This document shows, in pieces, positions 14,225-61,878 of a stretch of DNA of 64,000 nucleotides. The stretch is from Escherichia phage vB_EcoM_HZ_ZJUN4. Location: sequence record PP216085. One strand, given 5' to 3'. How positions within the stretch are numbered: the first letter of the stretch is position 1; the number at the start of each line of letters is the position of its first letter. The notes under the pieces were generated by a model. The model ran no database searches. It worked only from the letters and a program-made list of their open reading frames with translations, and had not been told where the DNA came from. The position numbers were made by a program, and so were the translations under genes.

Positions 14225-15427
14225 ATGAAAGTATGTATTTTTATGGCTCGAGGTCTTGAAGGTTGCGGTGTAACTAAATTTTCTCTTGAGCAGCGTGATT
14301 GGTTTATTAAAAATGGTCATGAAGTAACTTTGGTTTATGCTAAAGATAAATCATTTACTCGTAATTGCGCGCATGATTATAAATCATTTTCAATTCCGGT
14401 TTTATTGGCAAAAGAATACGATAAAACACTTAAGTTGGTAAATGATTGTGATATTCTAATTATCAATTCAGTTCCTGCTACTTCAGTTGAAGAAGACACG
14501 ATTAATAACTATAAAAAAATTATTGATAACATTAAACCTTCGGTTCGTGTTGTAGTTTATCAGCATGACCATTCTTCTCTTTCTTTACGCCGAAATTTGG
14601 GATTAGAAGAAACTGTTCGTCGAGCTGATGTTATTTTTAGCCATTCTGATAATGGCGATTTTAATAAAGTTTTAATGAAAGAATGGTATCCAGAAACTGT
14701 TTCACTGTTTGATGATATTGAAGAAGCACCGACTGTATATAACTTTCAGCCTCCTATGGATATTGCGAAGGTTCGATCAACTTACTGGAAAGATGTTTCT
14801 GAAATTAACATGAATATCAACCGTTGGATTGGTCGTACTACTACATGGAAAGGCTTTTATCAGATGTTTGATTTTCACGAAAAACATCTTAAACCTGCAG
14901 GACTAAGTACTATTATGGAAGGTCTGGAACGTTCTCCAGCGTTCATTCCTATTAAAGAAAAAGGAATTCCATACGAGTATTATCGTCTTCATCAAGTAGA
15001 CCAAATTAAAATTGCTCCTAATTTGCCAACGCAAATTCTCGACCGTTATGTAAATAGCGAAATGCTTGAACGTATGAGTAAATCCGGATTTGGTTATCAG
15101 CTGAGTAAATTAGATAAAAAATATCTACAACGTTCTTTAGAATACACTCATCTCGAGCTTGGTGCATGCGGAACAATTCCAGTATTTTGGAAATCTACTG
15201 GTGAAAATTTAAAATTCCGTGTTGATAATACTCCGTTAATTTCTCATGATAGCGGTATCGTTTGGTTTGATGAAAATGACATGAAATCAACATTTGAGCG
15301 TATTAAAGAACTGTCATCTGACCGAGCTCTTTATGACCGTGAACGTGAAAAAGCTTATGAATTTTTGTATCAGCATCAAGATTCAAGCTTCTGCTTTAAA
15401 GAGCAGTTTGACATTATTACAAAATAA
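14225..15427 (+). CDS. agt: DNA alpha-glucosyltransferase
   Basis: 400 aa, N-terminus M-x-CIFMARGLEGCGVTKFSLEQRDWFIKNGHEVTLVYAKDKSF matches recalled T4 Agt. Confidence 0.9.
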   Translation: MKVCIFMARGLEGCGVTKFSLEQRDWFIKNGHEVTLVYAKDKSFTRNCAHDYKSFSIPVLLAKEYDKTLKLVNDCDILIINSVPATSVEEDTINNYKKIIDNIKPSVRVVVYQHDHSSLSLRRNLGLEETVRRADVIFSHSDNGDFNKVLMKEWYPETVSLFDDIEEAPTVYNFQPPMDIAKVRSTYWKDVSEINMNINRWIGRTTTWKGFYQMFDFHEKHLKPAGLSTIMEGLERSPAFIPIKEKGIPYEYYRLHQVDQIKIAPNLPTQILDRYVNSEMLERMSKSGFGYQLSKLDKKYLQRSLEYTHLELGACGTIPVFWKSTGENLKFRVDNTPLISHDSGIVWFDENDMKSTFERIKELSSDRALYDREREKAYEFLYQHQDSSFCFKEQFDIITK

Positions 15428-25829: not shown

Positions 25830-26570
25830 ATGATTAATGACTCTATGACAGTTGAAGAAATTCGTCTTCATTTGGGAATTGCATTAAAGGAAAAAGATTT
25901 TGTAATTGACAAAACCGGGGTTAAAACTATTGAAATTATTGGTGCATCATTTGTAGCAGATGAACCTTTTATTTTTGGCGCTCTTAATGATGAATACATT
26001 CAGCGTGAACTTGAATGGTATAAGTCTCAAAGTTTGTTTGTTAAAGATATTCCAGGTGAAACACCAAAGATTTGGCAGCAGGTAGCATCTTCTAAAGGCG
26101 AAATTAACTCGAATTATGGTTGGGCTATTTGGTCAGAAGATAACTATGCTCAGTATGATATGTGTTTAGCTGAACTTGGTCAAAATCCTGATTCTCGGCG
26201 TGGTATCATGATTTATACTCGTCCATCCATGCAGTTTGACTACAATAAAGATGGTATGTCAGATTTCATGTGTACGAATACAGTACAGTACCTGATTCGT
26301 GATAAGAAAGTCAATGCAGTAGTAAGCATGAGAAGCAATGATTGCTGGGCAGGCTATCGTAATGATTATGCTTGGCAAAAATACGTACTAGATAAATTAG
26401 TATCTGACTTGAATGCAGGCGACCCATCGCGGCAATATAAAGCAGGTTCTATTATATGGAACGTTGGAAGTCTTCATGTGTACGAAAATCAGTTTTATTT
26501 AGTTGACCATTGGTGGAACACCGGTGAGACTCATATTGCTAAAAAGGATTATACTGGAAAATGGAAGTAA
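25830..26570 (+). CDS. 42: dCMP hydroxymethylase gp42
   Basis: 246 aa thymidylate-synthase-like; catalytic Cys context FMCTNTVQY. Confidence 0.92.
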   Translation: MINDSMTVEEIRLHLGIALKEKDFVIDKTGVKTIEIIGASFVADEPFIFGALNDEYIQRELEWYKSQSLFVKDIPGETPKIWQQVASSKGEINSNYGWAIWSEDNYAQYDMCLAELGQNPDSRRGIMIYTRPSMQFDYNKDGMSDFMCTNTVQYLIRDKKVNAVVSMRSNDCWAGYRNDYAWQKYVLDKLVSDLNAGDPSRQYKAGSIIWNVGSLHVYENQFYLVDHWWNTGETHIAKKDYTGKWK

Positions 26571-27202
26571 ATGTGCCACATGTTTATAAGTATAAACATC
26601 CTAAAACTAAAAAGTGGTATATAGGAAGTCATGATGGTCACAACCCGAATTATGATGGTTCGGGTGTAGTTTGGCAACATGCTAAAAAGAAATATGGAAT
26701 AAAATCCTTTAATAAAGAAATATTATATGAAGGACCAATGTTTAGACAGGTTGAAGAAATTATTTTAACTTGTTTAGATGCTGCTAATTGTCCGGATTCA
26801 TATAATTTAAAGAATGAAGCATGGGGAGGAAGTTTTCCAGGCAAATTAAATGGAATGTACGGTAAAAAACTATCTCCAGAAGAAAGATATAAGTGCGGAA
26901 ATGCCTTTCGTGGAATCAAGCGTCCTGATCATTCTAAAAGAATGAAAGGCGAAGGTAATCCAATGTATGGTAAAAATGAGCAGGCATATGGAATTATAAA
27001 TCGAGCCAAGGAAAATTCTGGTAAAACTTATGAAGAAATTTTTGGCGTAGAAAAAGCTAAAATAATTAAAGAAACGATGTCTAAAAATCGTAAAGGAAAA
27101 CCTCATAATTTGATAGAAAAAATATGTCCGCATTGCGGACTAAAAGGACGTGGGCCAAATATGACAAGATACCATTTTGACAAATGTAAGGCACTTAAAT
27201 GA
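26561..27202 (+). CDS. GIY-YIG homing endonuclease (Seg-like)
   Basis: N-terminal KWYIGSHDG...YDGSG GIY-YIG-like motif; repeated modules (GKKLSPEERYK / GIKRPDHSKRMKGEGNPMYGK); C-terminal CPHCG; overlaps gene 42 end. Confidence 0.75.
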   Translation: MEVNVPHVYKYKHPKTKKWYIGSHDGHNPNYDGSGVVWQHAKKKYGIKSFNKEILYEGPMFRQVEEIILTCLDAANCPDSYNLKNEAWGGSFPGKLNGMYGKKLSPEERYKCGNAFRGIKRPDHSKRMKGEGNPMYGKNEQAYGIINRAKENSGKTYEEIFGVEKAKIIKETMSKNRKGKPHNLIEKICPHCGLKGRGPNMTRYHFDKCKALK

Positions 27203-28041
27203 TTCAATTCGTAATTCCAAGTTATCAACGCGTAGGGGCAGTTTCTGCCCTTGATATGTTTCCGACTGATTATGAACCTCATATTGTAGTACGTGAACAC
27301 GAAGAAAAAGCTTATTATGACGCTTACGGGTCTAGAGCTAAAATTATAACTATTCCTGATGATGTTAATGGAATTGCTGGAACTCGTAAAGCAATTACTG
27401 ATATGTATGCAGGTCAACGAATCTGGATGATTGACGATGATACTACTATTCGTATGAGTTCAATGCGAAAGAAAGATGATCGTCGCTGCGTAGATAAAAT
27501 TAACCAGTTAACTCGTGAACAGTTCTATGAATTGATTCAATACGTTGAAGATGCCATGGATTGCGGGTATTATCATGGTCATGCTCGTTTACCTATTTTT
27601 AAAATTACTTCATCTTGGGGTAATTATCGTGAAAATTCATATGGATTCACGAATACTTGGTATGACCTCGGAAAACTTGCAACAGAACAAATTGGGTATG
27701 GAAAAATTGATTTATGCGAAGATATGTATGCATTTCTCAATTTAATTAATCAAGGTTATCCGCATTTGGCCTTGTTCAAATATCTAGTTGTATCTGGAAA
27801 AGCACAGGCTCCCGGTGGATGCAGCTCAATTCGTAGTAATTCAAAACATAATAGAGCGCTTGAGCAAATCAATAGAGAGTTTCCAGAGCAAGCTCGTTGG
27901 AAAACTTCTAATATTGAAAAACGAAAATCATTGGGTGAAGAAGACGAGCCATTAAAGGTTCTTCGCATGTGTGTTTCACGCAAAGAAAAGTCAGAAGCAT
28001 TTCATAAGTTTAATGCTATTCATCCAATAGCAGTTGATTAA
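27199..28041 (+). CDS. putative DNA-modifying glycosyltransferase at the beta-gt locus (possibly beta-glucosyl-HMC-alpha-glucosyltransferase type)
   Basis: 280 aa between gene 42 and uvsX; N-terminus MIQFVIPSYQRVG and acidic MIDDDTT; not the recalled T4 Bgt sequence. Confidence 0.45.
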   Translation: MIQFVIPSYQRVGAVSALDMFPTDYEPHIVVREHEEKAYYDAYGSRAKIITIPDDVNGIAGTRKAITDMYAGQRIWMIDDDTTIRMSSMRKKDDRRCVDKINQLTREQFYELIQYVEDAMDCGYYHGHARLPIFKITSSWGNYRENSYGFTNTWYDLGKLATEQIGYGKIDLCEDMYAFLNLINQGYPHLALFKYLVVSGKAQAPGGCSSIRSNSKHNRALEQINREFPEQARWKTSNIEKRKSLGEEDEPLKVLRMCVSRKEKSEAFHKFNAIHPIAVD

Positions 28042-45084: not shown

Positions 45085-45503
45085 TGGCTATTAAATTTGA
45101 AGTTAATAAATGGTATCAATTTAAAAATAAACAAGCTCAAGAAAATTTTATTAAAGACCATACTGATAACGGAATCTATGCACGACGTTTAGGTATGGAA
45201 CCTTTTAAAATTTTAGATGCTGATTATCTTGGGCGTCCTACTAAAATTGTGACATCCACAGGTGTACTCAAACGTTGTGCCGGCGCTGATATCCTTGACG
45301 AAAACTTTATCTGGCTCTCTACTAACGAAGCTGGGTTCTTTGATGAAGTGGAAAATCCATATCAGGCAGCTGGAGAGCAAGAGCAGGAAGAGCAAGAACA
45401 AATAGAAGATTTCACAGAATTCCCGGTAATGAAAGTTACTATTGAAAATAATGAGCAGGCATGGTCCTTGTATCAGATGTTGAAAGCACACTTTAAGGAA
45501 TAA
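45084..45503 (+). CDS. hypothetical protein (GoF-like by position)
   Basis: 139 aa with acidic stretch EQEQEEQEQ. Confidence 0.45.
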
Positions 45504-45505
45504 TT

Positions 45506-45682
45506 ATGCCAATGTATGATTATAAATGCCAATCTGAAGATTGCGGGCATGAATATGAAAAAATTAAAAAGATTTCTGAACGAGAAAATGATGTTTGCCC
45601 TAAATGTCATCGTTTGTCTACTCGTCGGCCTTCTGCTCCTAAGCATGTGAATGGTGGTTTTTACGACTTACTTAAAGGGTAA
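45506..45682 (+). CDS. small zinc-ribbon protein (FmdB-like)
   Basis: Not in ORF track; MPMYDYKCQSEDCGHEYE...CPKCH (CxxC-x17-CxxC). Confidence 0.45.
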   Translation: MPMYDYKCQSEDCGHEYEKIKKISERENDVCPKCHRLSTRRPSAPKHVNGGFYDLLKG

Positions 45683-45684
45683 TT

Positions 45685-46056
45685 ATGTTTAAAATTGGTA
45701 AGAAATATCGCATTCGTGAAGGTGAAGAACAGAAATATCTACTTTCTGCTAGTAATAGGAATAGTTCTATTAATGCTGTAATATTGACTAGTGAATTTAT
45801 CGTTGAAGATATGAAAGGTCATAATGTTACAATGATTAGTACAGCATCTAGAAATGACGGAAAAATTCTTCATAGTTGTCAGAGTAGTGTTCTAATTTAT
45901 GATGAAGAATTTGACTTCTTCAAAGAAGTTTCCGAAGATTTTGATTTTGAATGCACTATCACTATGAAATCTGGCGACCCTCTTTCTTTTACAGTTAAAG
46001 ATGAAAGAAGCCGCTTGAGAATTATTAGTCTCCTTCAAGCCATTAAATTTGAGTGA
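45685..46056 (+). CDS. hypothetical protein
   Basis: Track ORF, 123 aa. Confidence 0.5.
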   Translation: MFKIGKKYRIREGEEQKYLLSASNRNSSINAVILTSEFIVEDMKGHNVTMISTASRNDGKILHSCQSSVLIYDEEFDFFKEVSEDFDFECTITMKSGDPLSFTVKDERSRLRIISLLQAIKFE

Positions 46057-46060
46057 AATT

Positions 46061-46321
46061 ATGAAATATGTTAATCGTTCTATCGCAGCATTAGTATTAG
46101 CAGTATCTTTAGTAGGATGTACTGATGCTGATAATGCAACCAAAGTTTTGTCTTCAAGCGGTTTTACTAATATTGAAATCACTGGATATAATTGGTTCGG
46201 TTGCTCTGAAAATGATTTCCAACACACTGGATTTCGTGCTATTGGACCTACCGGGCAGAAAGTAGAAGGAACAGTATGTTCTGGTCTATTCTTCAAGGAT
46301 TCGACTATCCGTTTTAAATAA
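46061..46321 (+). CDS. predicted lipoprotein
   Basis: Track ORF trimmed to MKYVNRSIAALVLAVSLVGC (lipobox LVGC). Confidence 0.5.
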   Translation: MKYVNRSIAALVLAVSLVGCTDADNATKVLSSSGFTNIEITGYNWFGCSENDFQHTGFRAIGPTGQKVEGTVCSGLFFKDSTIRFK

Positions 46322-46338
46322 AAGGCCTTCGGGCCTTT
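46322..46338 (+). terminator. GGCCTTCGGGCC hairpin + short U-tract
   Basis: UUCG-loop hairpin after lipoprotein gene. Confidence 0.5.
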
Positions 46339-46390
46339 AGCTTTATGATTACCGGAGTATAATATTCCCGAAACCAAACGAGGATAAGTG

Positions 46391-47941
46391 ATGATTAAGA
46401 ATGAAATTAAAATTCTAAGCGATATTGAACATATCAAAAAGCGTAGCGGCATGTATATTGGCTCTTCTGCTAATGAAATGCATGAGCGCTTTCTGTTTGG
46501 TAAATGGGAAAGTGTTCAGTATGTACCTGGTCTTGTTAAGCTTATTGATGAAATTATCGATAACTCAGTAGATGAAGGTATTCGTACTAAGTTTAAATTC
46601 GCAAATAAAATTAATGTTACTATTAAAAACAATCAAGTAACAGTTGAAGATAACGGTCGTGGTATTCCACAAGCGATGGTTAAAACACCTACCGGTGAAG
46701 AAATTCCTGGTCCTGTTGCTGCATGGACTATTCCAAAAGCAGGCGGTAACTTTGGTGATGATAAAGAACGCGTCACTGGCGGTATGAACGGTGTTGGTTC
46801 TAGTTTAACTAACATTTTTTCTGTGATGTTTGTCGGTGAAACTGGCGACGGTCAAAATAATATTGTAGTTCGTTGTTCAAATGGCATGGAAAATAAATCA
46901 TGGGAAACTATTCCTGGAAAATGGAAAGGAACTCGCGTTACTTTCATTCCTGATTTTATGTCATTTGAAACTAATGAGCTATCTCAAGTTTATCTTGACA
47001 TTACACTAGATCGTCTCCAGACACTTGCAGTAGTTTATCCTGATATTCAATTTACCTTTAATGGTAAAAAGGTTCAGGGTAATTTTAAGAAATATGCACG
47101 CCAATATGATGAACACGCTATCGTTCAAGAACAAGAAAATTGTTCTATTGCGGTTGGTCGTTCACCCGATGGTTTTCGTCAATTAACATACGTCAATAAC
47201 ATTCATACTAAGAATGGTGGCCATCACATTGACTGCGTTATGGATGATATTTGTGAAGACCTTATTCCACAAATCAAACGTAAGTTCAAAATTGACGTAA
47301 CTAAAGCACGTGTTAAAGAATGTTTGACTATCGTTATGTTTGTTCGTGATATGAAAAACATGCGATTTGATTCTCAAACTAAAGAGCGTCTGACTTCTCC
47401 ATTTGGTGAAATCCGTAGTCATATTCAGCTTGATGCTAAAAAGATTTCACGTGCTATTTTGAATAATGAAGCAATTTTAATGCCAATCATTGAAGCTGCC
47501 TTGGCTCGTAAATTGGCGGCAGAAAAAGCAGCAGAAACTAAAGCAGCTAAAAAGGCTTCTAAAGCTAAGGTTCATAAACATATTAAAGCGAATCTTTGCG
47601 GTAAAGATGCTGATACTACTCTTTTCTTGACTGAGGGTGATTCTGCTATCGGATATCTTATTGATGTTCGTGATAAAGAACTTCATGGTGGTTATCCATT
47701 GCGTGGTAAAGTTCTTAACAGTTGGGGTATGTCATATGCTGATATGCTTAAAAATAAAGAACTGTTTGATATTTGCGCAATCACTGGATTAGTTCTTGGT
47801 GAAAAGGCGTTTGAAGAAAAAGAAGATGGCGAGTGGTTTACTTTCGAACTAAATGGCGATACAATTATCGTAAATGAAAATGATGAAGTACAGATTAATG
47901 GTAAATGGATAACAGTAGGTGAATTACGAAAAAATCTATAA
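46391..47941 (+). CDS. 39: DNA topoisomerase II large subunit gp39 (GyrB-like ATPase)
   Basis: ATG after CGAGGATAA; GHKL ATPase motifs (IDNSVDEG, DNGRGIP); 516 aa. Confidence 0.92.
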   Translation: MIKNEIKILSDIEHIKKRSGMYIGSSANEMHERFLFGKWESVQYVPGLVKLIDEIIDNSVDEGIRTKFKFANKINVTIKNNQVTVEDNGRGIPQAMVKTPTGEEIPGPVAAWTIPKAGGNFGDDKERVTGGMNGVGSSLTNIFSVMFVGETGDGQNNIVVRCSNGMENKSWETIPGKWKGTRVTFIPDFMSFETNELSQVYLDITLDRLQTLAVVYPDIQFTFNGKKVQGNFKKYARQYDEHAIVQEQENCSIAVGRSPDGFRQLTYVNNIHTKNGGHHIDCVMDDICEDLIPQIKRKFKIDVTKARVKECLTIVMFVRDMKNMRFDSQTKERLTSPFGEIRSHIQLDAKKISRAILNNEAILMPIIEAALARKLAAEKAAETKAAKKASKAKVHKHIKANLCGKDADTTLFLTEGDSAIGYLIDVRDKELHGGYPLRGKVLNSWGMSYADMLKNKELFDICAITGLVLGEKAFEEKEDGEWFTFELNGDTIIVNENDEVQINGKWITVGELRKNL

Positions 47942-48737
47942 TGACTTAATAGTGCGGGGTAAAACCCGCGTTTCTAAATTTAAGGGTGAAATTCATCATA
48001 TCCTTCCAAGATCAATGGGAGGTTCTGATGATAAAGAAAATTTGGTGAAACTGACTTTTCGTGAACATTTTTTAGCACATTTTCTACTATATAAAATTCA
48101 TCGTAATCGTGAAATGGCATATGCGATGAATAGAATGTTAAACACTGAAAAATATTTACGTTCTAGTAAATTATATGAAATTACTAGAATTTACCATCAA
48201 AGAGCAGTATCTGAATGGTCAAAAAACTTTATGAAAGATAAAGTTTTAATGAGAAGTATTAAATCGGGTAAATGCGCCTTATTAATTAAAGGATCATTTA
48301 ACCCAAAGGAATGGTGCGGTGTTAATAAAGGTGTTAAGCTTCCTGGAATTAAAGGCATGACATGCTTTAAAAATGAAAAAGGCGAAGTTTTTCGTCTTCA
48401 TGTTAATGATCCACGCATTAAAGCTGAAAAATTAGTTGGTATTGGAAATACTGTTGCTGCTACTGCAAAAGCAGCTGAACTTGAAAAAGCGAAACCATGG
48501 TATAATAAATCAGCGACAAATCCAGAGGCTGTAAAATTAATACCAAATTTATATGAATGGTACGTCACGAAATATGACCCCGATCATTATAAACGAACGG
48601 GAGTTGCTAAATGGAAATCAGTTAATAATATAACTGTGAATTCAAAATTATTCGGCCGAGCATTTAATGAATTTAAACGCGGTTGGATTCCTGATGAAAA
48701 GTTCTATGAGGTGTATAATGAAATTTGTAAAAATTGA
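47919..48737 (+). CDS. mobA: HNH homing endonuclease MobA between genes 39 and 60
   Basis: 272 aa; HNH region EIHHILPRSMGGSDDKENLVKLTFREHFLAH; overlaps gene 39 end (23 nt) and gene 60 start (20 nt). Confidence 0.85.
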   Translation: MNYEKIYNDLIVRGKTRVSKFKGEIHHILPRSMGGSDDKENLVKLTFREHFLAHFLLYKIHRNREMAYAMNRMLNTEKYLRSSKLYEITRIYHQRAVSEWSKNFMKDKVLMRSIKSGKCALLIKGSFNPKEWCGVNKGVKLPGIKGMTCFKNEKGEVFRLHVNDPRIKAEKLVGIGNTVAATAKAAELEKAKPWYNKSATNPEAVKLIPNLYEWYVTKYDPDHYKRTGVAKWKSVNNITVNSKLFGRAFNEFKRGWIPDEKFYEVYNEICKN

Positions 48738-49250
48738 TTCTTCTAGCGTTGATATGAAAAAATATAAATTGCAGAACAATGTTCGTCGTTCTATTAAATC
48801 CTCTTCAATGAACTATGCGAATGTCGCTATTATGACAGACGCAGATCACGATGGATAGCCTTCGGGCTATCTATAGAAATACCTCATAATTAAGAGATTA
48901 TTGGATTAGGTTCTATTTATCCTTCTCTGCTCGGATTTTTTAGTAATTGGCCAGAATTGTTTGAACAAGGAAGAATTCGCTTTGTCAAAACTCCTGTAAT
49001 CATCGCTCAGGTCGGTAAAAAACAAGAATGGTTTTATACAGTCGCTGAATATGAGAGTGCCAAAGATGCTCTACCTAAACATAGCATCCGTTATATTAAA
49101 GGACTTGGCTCTTTGGAAAAATCTGAATATCGTGAGATGATTCAAAACCCAGTATATGATGTTGTTAAACTTCCTGAGAACTGGAAAGAGCTTTTTGAAA
49201 TGCTCATGGGAGATAATGCTGACCTTCGTAAAGAATGGATGAGCCAGTAG
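48718..49250 (+). CDS. 60: DNA topoisomerase II small subunit gp60, translated by ribosomal bypass of a 50-nt gap (segment 1 48718..48855, segment 2 48906..49250)
   Basis: Segment 1 ends ...DADHDG at GGA then TAG; matching GGA lies 47 nt downstream and the continuing frame encodes LGSIYPSLLGFFSNWPELFEQGRIRF...; matches recalled T4 gp60. Confidence 0.9.
48853..48908 (+). other. gene 60 translational bypass (hop) element: take-off GGA, UAG stop, CCUUCGGG hairpin, landing GGA
   Basis: GGATAGCCTTCGGGCTATCTATAGAAATACCTCATAATTAAGAGATTATTGGATTA read directly. Confidence 0.9.
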
Positions 49251-49279
49251 TTTACTTTACCACAAGGACGTGGTATAAT
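49249..49279 (+). promoter_or_regulatory. T4-type early promoter
   Basis: GTTTACTTT...CGTGGTATAAT. Confidence 0.6.
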
Positions 49280-49304
49280 TAATTGGGCAAATGAGGATAT
49301 TGAA

Positions 49305-49508
49305 ATGAAATCATATAAAGTAAATTTAGAACTTTTTGATAAAGCAGTTCATCGAGAATATAGAATCATTCAACGCTTTTTCGATATGGGAGAAGCCGAA
49401 GAGTTTAAAAACCGCTTTAAGAATATTAGAGATAAAATTCAATCCGACACCGCAACTAAAGATGAACTACTAGAAGTTGCTGAAGTTATTAAACGCAATA
49501 TGAATTAA
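49305..49508 (+). CDS. hypothetical protein upstream of rIIA
   Basis: 67 aa, RBS GAGGATATTGAA. Confidence 0.5.
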
Positions 49509-49518
49509 TGAGGAAATT

Positions 49519-51696
49519 ATGATTATCACCACTGAAAAAGAAACTATTCTTGGTAATGGTTCTAAATCAAAAGCATTTAGCATCACAGCATCTCCTAAAG
49601 TATTTAAAATTCTGTCATCTGATTTGTATACAAACAAGATTCGCGCAGTAGTACGTGAATTGATTACTAATATGATTGATGCCCATGCTCTTAATGGAAA
49701 TCCTGAAAAATTTATCATACAAGTTCCAGGACGATTAGACCCACGATTTGTTTGCCGAGATTTTGGTCCGGGTATGAGCGATTTTGATATTCAGGGTGAT
49801 GATAATTCTCCTGGGTTGTATAATTCATACTTTAGTTCATCTAAGGCTGAATCTAACGATTTCATTGGCGGATTTGGTTTAGGTTCTAAATCTCCGTTTA
49901 GTTATACTGATACATTTAGTATTACTTCATATCATAAAGGTGAAATTCGTGGTTATGTAGCTTACATGGATGGTGACGGTCCGCAGATTAAACCTACATT
50001 CGTAAAAGAAATGGGTCCAAATGATAAAACTGGTATTGAAATCGTAGTTCCAGTTGAAGAAAAAGACTTTAGAAACTTTGCTTATGAAGTTTCTTATATC
50101 ATGCGACCATTCAAAGATTTGGCTATTATTAATGGTCTTGACCGTGAAATTGATTATTTTCCGGATTTTGATGACTATTACGGCGTAAATCCAGAAAGAT
50201 ATTGGCCAGATCGTGGTGGATTGTATGCTATCTATGGCGGTATTGTTTATCCTATTGATGGTGTTATTAGAGACCGTAACTGGTTAAGCATCCGCAATGA
50301 AGTGAATTATATTAAGTTTCCAATGGGTTCACTTGATATTGCTCCATCGCGTGAGGCTCTTTCACTAGATGATCGTACTCGTAAAAATATTATTGAGCGT
50401 GTTAAAGAGCTCAGTGAGAAGGCATTTAATGAAGATGTAAAACGATTTAAAGAATCTACATCTCCTCGTCATACATACCGTGAATTGATGAAGATGGGGT
50501 ATTCTGCTCGAGATTATATGATTAGTAATTCAGTCAAATTCACGACTAAAAATCTGTCATATAAGAAGATGCAGAGCATGTTTGAACCTGACAGTAAGTT
50601 ATGCAATGCAGGGGTTGTGTATGAAGTAAATCTTGACCCTCGACTGAAACGCATTAAGCAAAGTCATGAAACTTCAGCCGTTGCATCAAGCTATCGTCTG
50701 TTTGGTATTAATACGACAAAAATTAATATTGTTATTGATAATACTAAAAATCGTGTTAATATTGTCCGTGGATTAGCACGCGCGTTAGATGATAGTGAAT
50801 TTAATAACACCTTAAATATTCATCACAATGAGCGGCTTCTGTTTATTAATCCGGAAGTAGAATCGCAGATTGATTTGCTTCCTGATATTATGGCAATGTT
50901 TGAAAGTGATGAAGTTAACATTCATTATTTATCAGAAATTGAAGCTTTAGTTAAAAGTTATATTCCAAAGGCAGTAAAAAGTACAGCTCCTCGTCCTAAA
51001 GCTGCTACTGCATTTAAGTTTGAAATTAAAGACGGGCGCTGGGAAAAAGAGGAATTGTTTACGCTCACATCAGAAGCAGATGAAATTACTGGTTATGTAG
51101 CATACATGCATCGTTCTGATATTTTCTCTATGGATGGTACTACATCGCTTTGTCATCCATCTACGAGTATTTTGACTCGTATGGCTAATCTTATTGGCAT
51201 TAATGAATTTTATGTTATTCGTCCGCTTTTGCAGAAAAAGGTAAAAGAACTTGGTCAATGCCAATGTATTTTTGAAACTTTGCGTGATTTATATGTAGAT
51301 GCTTTTGATGATGTAGATTATGATAAGTATGTAGGTTATTCAAGTTCAGCTAAACGATATATTGATAAAATTATCAAGTATCCTGAGTTAGATTTTATGA
51401 TGAAGTACTTCAGTGTAGATGAAGTTTCTGAAGAATATACACGACTCGCTAATATGGTTAGTTCATTACAGGGTGTATATTTCAACGGTGGAAAAGATAC
51501 CATCGGTCATGACATCTGGACAGTAACTAATCTTTTTGATGTATTATCAAATAATGCTTCAAAAAACAGTGATAAAATGGTTGCTGAGTTTACCAAGAAA
51601 TTCCGTATTGTTTCCGACTTCATCGGTTATCGCAACTCTTTAAGTGATGATGAAGTTTCCCAAATCGCTAAAACTATGAAGGCCCTTGCGGCCTAA
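49519..51696 (+). CDS. rIIA: rIIA protein
   Basis: 725 aa; N-terminal GHKL-like ATPase motifs ([25 protein letters not shown]); followed by rIIB. Confidence 0.9.
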
Positions 51697-61089: not shown

Positions 61090-61866
61090 TTATACTCTTG
61101 GACCATATATTGCTCCAACGTTTTGCCATGTCGGTGTAGACCCTATGACGGCATAACCGGCAGCTCCGCCATCGTATTCATATCCTTGACCACGAATATT
61201 ACATCTACCTCCCGCTGAACCTACTTCACCGCCGTTTCCACCATTATAGATACCATTCACGGATCCTGAGCCAGGTGCAGAAATAGTACCGCCAGTCGCG
61301 CCTGATTGCATATCAATAGATCCGCCTGGCGCACCAAAAGGACGACCGCCACCGCCGCCAAAGGTCAATCTCATTTGTGAAAAAGGAGAATAATATCCGC
61401 CGCCACCGCCGCCGCCGCCGCCTGCAATAGCTCCGCCATTATTAATTCTTAGTCTCCCACCAATATCGTTTTGAATACAATGACCTCCAGCTGAGCCAGG
61501 ACTATTGCTACCGCCATTACCTCCACGACCATACATCGTTACGCCATGTATATTTAACTGAACATATTCATTTGGTGTATCTCCGTACATGAAGAATAAA
61601 GGAACATCTTTAGAATATGATACTAAATCTCCAGTGATATTAAACACTATAGGTGCACTACCTGCCTCAAAACATCTATCTCGGAACCATTGGCCATTGA
61701 AGTTATGGTCTGCTCCAAGCGTGTGAATTATTTCAACAGACCGCCCGTTCATATTACTCATCCAAAACGGAATACCCATTCTCAATCGTTGGGCGGCGCC
61801 GCCCATCCAATTTTGTCCTGTATTAACTACTGCAGACGATCCTACCCACGGTCCTGTTACTGCCAT
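61090..61866 (-). CDS. 38: long tail fiber adhesin gp38, T2-type with glycine-rich motifs
   Basis: Track ORF 61090..61878 (TTG) trimmed to ATG after GGAGG; polyglycine runs [11 protein letters not shown] and [13 protein letters not shown] separating variable segments. Confidence 0.85.
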
Positions 61867-61878
61867 ATAAACCTCCAA

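Follow-up and report, generated by a model that had tools for sequence, protein, structure and literature searches.

A 1106-nt MobA homing element splits the topoisomerase II large-subunit gene of Escherichia phage vB_EcoM_HZ_ZJUN4 as in T4

The gene for the large topoisomerase II subunit is split as in phage T4

In Escherichia phage vB_EcoM_HZ_ZJUN4 (PP216085), the gene encoding the large topoisomerase II subunit is divided by an open reading frame for a predicted homing endonuclease, which raises the question of whether the DNA separating the two pieces represents one inserted element and how this element came to reside in a backbone that is not that of T4. The locus spans positions 46391–49250 of the analyzed stretch of 64,000 nucleotides (hereafter, the window), and all features described below lie on the plus strand. 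With high confidence, we assign it to a split gene of the T4 type, derived from an ancestral unsplit gene 39 by the presence of a 1106-nt MobA homing element in the part that encodes TOPRIM. Gene order and all ORF boundaries match the annotation of phage T4T (HM137666; genes 39, mobA and 60, the latter as a two-part join with a 50-nt bypass) at an offset of 44799, and the region shows 97.9% identity to T4 across 3 kb. Given this identity and the matches to phrog families, chance can be dismissed as a source of the ORF layout, and nothing in the sequence contradicts the assignment. The observation made in a preliminary description of this DNA is thereby confirmed as real and correctly interpreted; since the arrangement is the well-known one of T4, it is at the same time already known.

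The N-terminal piece, gene 39 (46391–47941; 516 aa), has the same coordinates as its T4T counterpart. It begins at the annotated ATG at 46391 (the mechanical ORF call starts at a GTG at 46388) and ends, as previously proposed for this GyrB-like ATPase, at 47941 with a TAA codon (47939–47941). Its product comprises the GHKL ATPase and transducer domains followed by the beginning of TOPRIM, matches HATPase_c and DNA_gyraseB in Pfam as well as phrog_543 (E 1e-229), and differs from T4T gp39 at four residues (53 nt). The remaining C-terminal part of the subunit is encoded by gene 60, in agreement with the preliminary description: its second coding segment (48906–49250; codons 47–160) contains the rest of TOPRIM and the GyrB C-terminal part, with Pfam matches to TOPRIM_C (E 2e-8) and DNA_gyraseB_C, so that the domain set of a type IIA GyrB-like protein is complete across the two halves. 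Compared to T4T, this segment shows three synonymous differences, and the joined product has 160 aa.

The intervening reading frame encodes an intact endonuclease

Between the two pieces lies mobA (47919–48737), an uninterrupted ORF for a predicted HNH homing endonuclease of 272 aa (published range 269–279 aa), which starts with GTG, ends with TGA and is annotated alike in T4T. The two topoisomerase pieces are read in other frames, and mobA shares 23 nt with gene 39 (47919–47941) and 20 nt with gene 60 (48718–48737), exactly as the preliminary description had placed it. The overlap with gene 39 slightly exceeds the quoted 1–20 nt, a value that depends on which GTG is chosen as the start. In the JEP6 record, a later GTG is annotated as the mobA start.

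MobA aligns over residues 1–265 with phrog_655 ("homing endonuclease"; E 1e-56) and carries the HNH motif EIHHILPRSMGGSDDKENLVKLTFREH. The catalytic residues on which the HNH reading depends are present, H26/H27, N41 and H50 aligning with solved HNH domains (group II intron maturase 6me0 and a Cas8f-HNH fusion). The Pfam HNH profile (PF01844) covers 20 residues with 20.1 bits (E 7e-4), a near miss below the gathering cut-off of 21.4. Two amino acid changes, A89T and T169A, distinguish this protein from T4T MobA, and A89T is private to it.

These data also bear on whether the endonuclease might be a decayed relic, leaving only the split gene and the bypass functional. In favor of decay, the reference T4 records AF158101 and NC_000866 annotate a mobA pseudogene together with a separate ORF 60.1, and progressive loss of MobA has been described in some lineages (Manning & Atkins 2022, bioRxiv 10.1101/2022.08.31.505936). 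For the phage studied here we nevertheless consider it improbable, as the 272-aa frame is collinear with those of T4T, Lv5cm, BF15, G50 and HY01, the phrog_655 alignment spans nearly the entire protein, and both differences from T4T MobA fall outside the HNH motif. The AF158101 copy, on the other hand, is 11 nt longer than the cassette in the window and runs out of register from 48035.

The junctions delimit a single mobile element

In order to delimit the inserted DNA, the locus was compared with the fused gene 39 of the phages AR1, Pu-Krd-SF4, BMB16, EP01 and GEP001. Junctions were set by anchored string comparison, as a global MAFFT alignment of the window with the fused genes placed the right flank wrongly. 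Against all five genes the boundaries are clean and discrete: the element occupies 47809–48914, its left junction falls within codon Ala473 of gene 39 (47807–47809), and its 1106 nt replace 64 nt of the unsplit gene. The preliminary description, which had proposed this comparison, had deduced one inserted cassette from the overlapping ORFs. That conclusion stands on the alignment with the fused genes, whereas the overlaps alone were a weak argument for it.

The dimensions fit those published for the MobA element (1097–1106 nt, with a parental loss of 64 nt, range 55–75 nt; Manning & Atkins 2022), and the position agrees with the published insertion site in the TOPRIM-coding part, given as around residues 466–473 for this element (Bonocora et al. 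2011, as summarized in citing work; Manning & Atkins 2022). The copy in the window differs at 5 nt from that of T4T and at 1 nt from those of Lv5cm and BF15.

The element exceeds mobA and the coding gap. It also provides the last 43 residues of gp39 (residues 474–516, encoded with the stop codon at 47810–47941), the sequence shared with the fused genes stopping in codon 473, and the first 46 residues of gp60. The reported C-terminal extension of gp39 is about 43–44 aa long, and the N-terminal extension of gp60 44–46 aa (Manning & Atkins 2022). Part of the latter is homR, a recoded copy of the parental region that MobA targets; homR covers gp60 N32–G46 (48811–48855) and continues for 9 nt past the gap (48906–48914). 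It is identical to the parental sequence at 37/54 nt (68.5%) and encodes NYANVAIMTDADHDG-LGS here compared with NYHNIAIMTDADHDG-LGS in the parental gene; published values lie at 67–81%, and the 9 extra nt are known from clade 1 (Manning & Atkins 2022). All sequence features of MobA elements that we checked were thus found, namely the site, the size, the endonuclease ORF, the extensions with homR and the bypass signals.

A different explanation for the split would be an ancient fission into genes 39 and 60, with the intervening ORF as an unrelated later arrival. Two separate events would be compatible with the proposal that endonuclease and bypass were perhaps once independent and with the different endonuclease found in some metagenomic versions (Manning & Atkins 2022). 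The distribution among relatives renders this very improbable for the present locus: about 460 close relatives have an unsplit gene, the 1106-nt block either occurs whole, with these same two junctions, or is missing altogether, and none of the sampled Tequatrovirus genomes carries the split without the bypass or the bypass without the split.

The bypass signals of gene 60 are identical to those of T4

The gene 60 hop, reportedly described for T4 by Huang et al. in 1988, is a classic extreme case of programmed translational recoding. In the window, the first coding segment of gene 60 (48718–48855; codons 1–46) starts with an ATG at 48718, encodes the nascent-peptide signal for bypassing and has the take-off GGA (48853–48855) as its last codon; it is identical to that of T4T and matches phrog_19082 (E 3e-27). 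It is followed by a 50-nt coding gap (48856–48905), a predicted ribosome skip that matches T4T, T4 AF158101, Lv5cm and BF15 as an exact string and is annotated as a bypass in T4T. The gap opens with UAG (48856–48858) and contains the mini Shine-Dalgarno GAG (48894–48896), 6 nt ahead of the landing GGA (48903–48905), as in the literature (published range 5–7 nt). The TOPRIM DxDxD motif (TDADHDG) is located at the take-off site. As the sequence is identical to T4 throughout 48718–48950, i.e. the first segment, the gap and the first 45 nt of the second segment, every known bypass signal in this interval is present. Coordinates of take-off, gap and landing had not been part of the preliminary description and are supplied here.

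In RNA folding predictions, the take-off stem-loop (48851–48874), with 10 bp and a UUCG tetraloop, holds the take-off GGA and the UAG and folds with −14.7 kcal/mol (z −5.4; 0/200 shuffles fold as well). Upstream of the take-off site, the 5' stem-loop already described in T4 (48816–48843; identical in sequence) reaches −10.8 kcal/mol (z −1.9). No stable fold was predicted for 48906–48960, the region of the downstream "forward slippage barrier" hairpin (z +0.9), the first 45 nt of which are identical to T4. Scanning 46000–49600 against Rfam at E ≤ 1 returned zero families, and this database seems to lack a bypass model. A promoter and terminator scan was uninformative, with nine promoter-like sites compared to 13.8 expected from shuffled sequences.

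Judging from the identity with T4, ribosomes are expected to bypass the gap in this phage as well. For annotation, gene 60 needs a two-part join here. In several records, e.g. those of Lv5cm, BF15, LH2 and G50, it is called as two separate small genes.

Proposed working of the element

The element supplies five components: the 43 residues with which gp39 ends; MobA, the predicted HNH nicking endonuclease, in another reading frame; a new start for gp60 with a leader of 30 residues; a recoded version of the 15 displaced codons; and the 50-nt untranslated gap. By analogy with T4, ribosomes on gene 60 would stall at the Gly46 GGA followed by UAG, and the peptidyl-tRNA-Gly would come off, a step aided by both the UUCG hairpin at the take-off site and the nascent peptide. 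After sliding over 50 nt, the ribosome would re-pair at the landing GGA, to which the GAG mini Shine-Dalgarno directs it, and yield the 160-aa gp60, which together with gp39 and gp52 would form the active enzyme. The literature gives a bypass efficiency of about 50% for gene 60, and a similar value may apply to this copy.

During co-infection, MobA would nick the intact gene 39 of an element-free phage, and recombinational repair would copy the element in. Carriers would be safe from their own nuclease because the gap interrupts the MobA recognition site. For T4-type MobA, experiments are reported in which the element homed into T2 and the gap protected its carriers (Bonocora et al. 2011, as represented in Manning & Atkins 2022 and Nat Commun 2024), and it is on this analogy that the endonuclease of the present phage is predicted to nick the cassette-free target, drive homing and spare its own genome. 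From the present sequence, indirect support comes from the higher conservation of the cassette relative to its flanks. The MobA element also explains the origin of the gene 60 hop.

The element is more conserved than its flanks

The backbone surrounding the element is not that of T4. In line with the non-T4-like features listed in the preliminary description, it encodes a T2/T6-type gp38 adhesin of 262 aa and a beta-alpha-glucosyltransferase instead of beta-gt; it also has an extra ORF upstream of gene 39.1. Cassettes were found in approximately 41 of about 500 Tequatrovirus records, representing at least four ICTV species. The flanks of the copy studied here are closest to cassette-free phages (98.2–98.6% identity), whereas the cassette itself reaches 99.5–99.9% identity to copies from carriers that match the gene 39 of the window at only 95–98%. 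This is evident in the second half of gene 39, which shows 95.3–97.2% identity to the carriers Lv5cm, BF15 and T4T compared to 98.2% to cassette-free BMB16. Relative to T4T, the gene 39 flank has diverged by 3.7%; T4T differs at 47788, 47789, 47797 and 47806, and then at only five sites in the next 1106 nt. Co-conversion on the right-hand side of the cassette was considered and rejected: 48915–49250 is 99.1% identical to T4T, but 97.9–99.1% identity is found in every sampled phage, carrier or not, and the SNP table contains no carrier-specific haplotype.

The distribution of the cassette fits its known spread by homing and is not new in this respect. The suggestion in the preliminary description that it moved between lineages is consistent with the identities of cassette and flanks and with the SNP patchwork around them, and such movement was already established (Bonocora et al. 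2011, as represented in a citing paper; Manning & Atkins 2022). We slightly favor the view that nature has here repeated the laboratory cross of T4 with T2: a T2/T6-like backbone with flanks nearest to cassette-free phages would recently have gained its T4-type MobA element through homing, and practically no sequence to the left of the insertion would have been co-converted. In that case, the element would still be moving between Tequatrovirus species in the wild.

Alternatively, the cassette could have descended vertically from a T4-like ancestor, with the genome around it, including gp38, glucosyltransferase and gene 39 flanks, swapped piecemeal by later homologous recombination and without any MobA-driven entry into this lineage. 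Such a history would suit the strongly mosaic nature of T-even genomes, the flanking SNP haplotypes, which form a patchwork common to carriers and non-carriers and do not sort by carrier status, and the fact that no single database genome exceeds approximately 97.5% identity to the window over long flanks. However, divergence from T4T drops precisely at the left junction (four differences within 47788–47806, then five in 1106 nt), cassette copies across four species differ by no more than about 1.5%, and the element is reported to be mobile in experiments. Vertical descent thus seems rather unlikely to us, although vertical and homing routes leave similar traces; it bears on the history of the element only and not on its identity.

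Either way, what the window contributes is not a new principle but a further natural carrier, whose backbone is not that of T4 and whose endonuclease gene is intact. It could serve as a data point in population-level studies of the rates at which the element spreads and decays.

Comparison with known systems

The closest known system is the T4 39/mobA/60 cassette (Bonocora, Zeng, Abel & Shub 2011, PNAS 108:16351, as summarized in citing work), with which the locus shares the gene order, ORF boundaries, 23-nt and 20-nt overlaps, 50-nt gap and all known bypass signals within 48718–48950, only 5/1106 nt being different. It is unlike T4 in its backbone (gp38 type, glucosyltransferase and the extra ORF upstream of gene 39.1) and in the MobA changes A89T and T169A. 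Within the classification of Manning & Atkins 2022, it resembles the "clade 1" elements of E. coli T4-like phages such as HY01 in its length of 1106 nt, the 64-nt deletion, the 43-aa C-terminal and 46-aa N-terminal extensions, the 9 extra recoded nt past the gap, GGA as both take-off and landing codon, the UAG and the UUCG hairpin. We found no structural difference from this clade, and the copy in the window is 98.6% identical to that of HY01 and 99.9% to those of Lv5cm and BF15.

The MobA elements of Proteus, Salmonella S16, Acinetobacter and Shewanella phages (clades 2–6) share the insertion site and architecture at a DNA similarity of 64–72%, but have other take-off and landing codons, other gap sequences and more divergent MobA proteins. 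A more distant parallel is MobE in Aeromonas phage Aeh1. This free-standing HNH homing endonuclease likewise interrupts an essential gene (nrdA), with terminal extensions that let the pieces reassemble (Manning & Atkins 2022); unlike the element described here, it has a different target gene and works without translational bypass.

Gene layout of the split topoisomerase locus

The ORF coordinates of the preliminary description, including overlaps of 23 nt and 20 nt, proved exact on the + strand. Gene 39 (46391-47941, +) encodes a 516-aa GyrB-like protein with the Pfam domains HATPase_c and DNA_gyraseB, which was assigned to the topoisomerase II large subunit in PHROGs (E 1e-229). It shares 47919-47941 with mobA, a 272-aa ORF with a GTG start at 47919 (47919-48737, +), which in turn shares 48718-48737 with the first part of gene 60, a short + strand ORF running from ATG 48718 into the UAG at 48856-48858. 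This first segment matches the gp60 N-terminal family (PHROGs, E 3e-27), the second part is a + strand reading frame extending to 49250 with TOPRIM_C and DNA_gyraseB_C (Pfam), and joining both segments gives a gp60 of 160 aa. On the minus strand, a 186-aa ORF (45892-46452) lies across the gene 39.1/39 junction; AR1 carries a similar annotation (ar1_006), and the ORF is probably a spurious shadow ORF.

The 272-aa ORF matches the homing endonuclease family phrog_655 (E 1e-56), with the alignment starting at residue 1. Missing catalytic residues had been named as a possible objection; the HNH core (EIHHILPRSMGGSDDKENLVKLTFREH) is present and lines up position by position with HNH domains from a group II intron maturase and from Cas8f-HNH fusions. 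The Pfam HNH score of 20.1 bits narrowly misses the cut-off of 21.4, and such near misses are usual for this short motif. Compared to the protein of T4T (HM137666), MobA shows only the differences A89T and T169A, and A89T (48183) was absent from all sampled cassette-carrying phages (carriers) amenable to base-by-base alignment.

A discrete insertion in gene 39

Of 502 Tequatrovirus records with matches to a junction-spanning query, about 460 aligned only in two short pieces or along one flank and lacked the block between. Gene 39 is a single gene of 1818 nt in all cassette-free records retrieved (5/5). The junctions were set by anchored comparison with the fused genes of AR1, Pu-Krd-SF4, BMB16, EP01 and GEP001: the common sequence ends at 47808, in codon Ala473, and restarts at 48915, with 1106 nt between the junctions in place of 64 nt of parental gene. 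The alignment to fused 39/60 genomes proposed in the preliminary description thus yielded a discrete insertion. The parental codons lost to the element are ENL-NYHNIAIMTDADHDG-LGS; the element holds a recoded copy, NYANVAIMTDADHDG, followed by the gap and then LGS, and this copy is identical to the parental sequence at 37/54 nt (68.5%).

These dimensions equal those reported for the MobA element, which is 1097-1106 nt long, goes with a deletion of 64 nt in HY01, and adds a C-terminal extension of 43 aa and an N-terminal one of 46 aa; copies of the E. coli clade have 9 further recoded nt behind the gap (Manning & Atkins 2022, 10.1101/2022.08.31.505936). Together, the junctions and this match show that endonuclease and bypass do form one inserted unit, as first proposed. 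The unit also codes for the gp39 tail and the gp60 head.

Bypass signals and proposed mechanism

Window and T4 do not differ anywhere in 48718-48950, which covers the first gene 60 segment, the gap and the initial 45 nt of the second segment. All of the following signals and the full nascent-peptide signal are therefore present on the + strand: the take-off GGA (48853-48855), the UAG stop (48856-48858), the 50-nt gap (48856-48905), the GAG mini-SD (48894-48896) 6 nt 5' of the landing codon, and the landing GGA (48903-48905). Folding predicted a take-off hairpin with a UUCG loop (48851-48874, +; -14.7 kcal/mol, z -5.4) and a 5' stem-loop (48816-48843, +). Several of the natural carriers LH2, G50, HY01, PEC04 and JEP6 are substituted in the equivalent region, in the gp60 leader, the gap or just downstream; one substitution in G50, for instance, lies inside the take-off hairpin (equivalent of 48872). 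Several carrier records annotate gene 60 as two small separate ORFs with no join.

While the structure was read from the window, the dynamics come from published work on the identical sequence of T4. On this basis, about half of the ribosomes would stall at GGA-UAG, retain peptidyl-tRNA-Gly, slide across the gap and restart at the second GGA. In element-free phages, MobA would nick the parental counterpart of homR, the recoded target region on the gene 60 side, and recombinational repair would then copy the element into the nicked phage; homing from a T4-type phage into T2 was reported as an experimental result by Bonocora et al. 2011. Carriers would be guarded against their own nicking by the gap, which lies about 20 nt away from the nick site. 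In the cryo-EM structure of T4 topoisomerase II, the roughly 70 inserted residues project away from the TOPRIM domain and hardly affect activity, in keeping with a role in assembly.

Genomic backbone and element history

The claim that other features of the window are not T4-like held for both loci concerned: gp38 (61090-61878, -; phrog_2056, E 1e-109) is a 262-aa adhesin of the T2/T6 type, and gene 42 is followed by a 280-aa beta-glucosyl-HMC-alpha-glucosyltransferase (27199-28041, +; phrog_842, E 6e-89) rather than the T4 beta-gt. At these loci, the backbone is accordingly T2/T6-like. An alpha-gt gene is present (14225-15427). A 213-aa ORF (26561-27202, +) sits between gene 42 (25830-26570) and the gene for the glucosyltransferase and matches two homing-endonuclease PHROGs: phrog 314 (E 2e-31), with the match limited to positions 174-392 of its 574-position profile, and phrog 655, to which MobA belongs (E 1e-8). 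This ORF may encode a second free-standing endonuclease, possibly truncated. Upstream of gene 39.1 and 0.3 kb from gene 39 lies an extra 123-aa ORF of unknown function (45685-46056, +; phrog_622). It represents a minor presence/absence polymorphism: an ORF of equal length (372 nt) is annotated at the same position in AR1, BMB16, LH2 and G50, and not in T4T, BF15 and HY01.

No database genome matched the long flanks above ~97.5%, and none reached at least 99% over the flanking 15-24 kb (INPHARED, August 2025). The best long-flank matches include BMB16, P8, GEP001 and EP01, in which gene 39 is unsplit based on matched coordinates or annotation. Two Logan contigs, built from the runs SRR33482062 and SRR33482064, match window 45461-51659 at 100% identity; the phage is present in public sequence data, though apparently missing from that INPHARED set. 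Outside the element, gene 39 is 98.2-98.6% identical to cassette-free BMB16 and 95.3-97.5% to the carriers T4T and BF15, whereas the 1106-nt element differs by 1 nt from Lv5cm and BF15 and by 5 nt from T4T. Relative to T4T, the window shows differences at 47788, 47789, 47797 and 47806, and then at just these 5 sites within the element. Among the sampled phages, carrier status was not reflected in flanking SNP haplotypes, no co-conversion tract was found beside the element, and carriers belong to no fewer than four ICTV species (T4, hy01, gee50, sgallinarium).

An element moving independently of its flanks would be expected to leave such a pattern, which fits the earlier suggestion of transfer between lineages. 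Vertical descent of the cassette with later replacement of the flanks by recombination would leave a similar pattern; we consider it less likely. Independent movement is also in line with published work, which concluded that the insertions happened recently and that the element remains active (Manning & Atkins 2022).

Comparison with T4 and other carriers

Overall, the original observation is confirmed and its interpretation supported. The feature is the already known, textbook T4 mobA/gene 60 cassette, described experimentally in 2011 and surveyed comparatively in 2022; the window represents one more natural carrier. Over 3 kb, the locus shares 97.9% identity with T4 and 98.6% with the best-matching database entry, the window + strand corresponding to the T4 minus strand and rIIA.1 and then rIIA lying downstream. 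At offset 44799, the window carries all features annotated here in T4T, namely gene 39, a mobA of 272 aa that begins at the same GTG, a gene 60 joined from two parts, and the 50 nt labelled "non-coding translational bypass region". In the T4 reference AF158101, by contrast, mobA is annotated as a pseudogene and ORF 60.1 is listed separately, and the cassette is 11 nt longer than that of the window and out of register from window position 48035. The uninterrupted mobA form is common to the window, T4T, Lv5cm, BF15, G50 and HY01.
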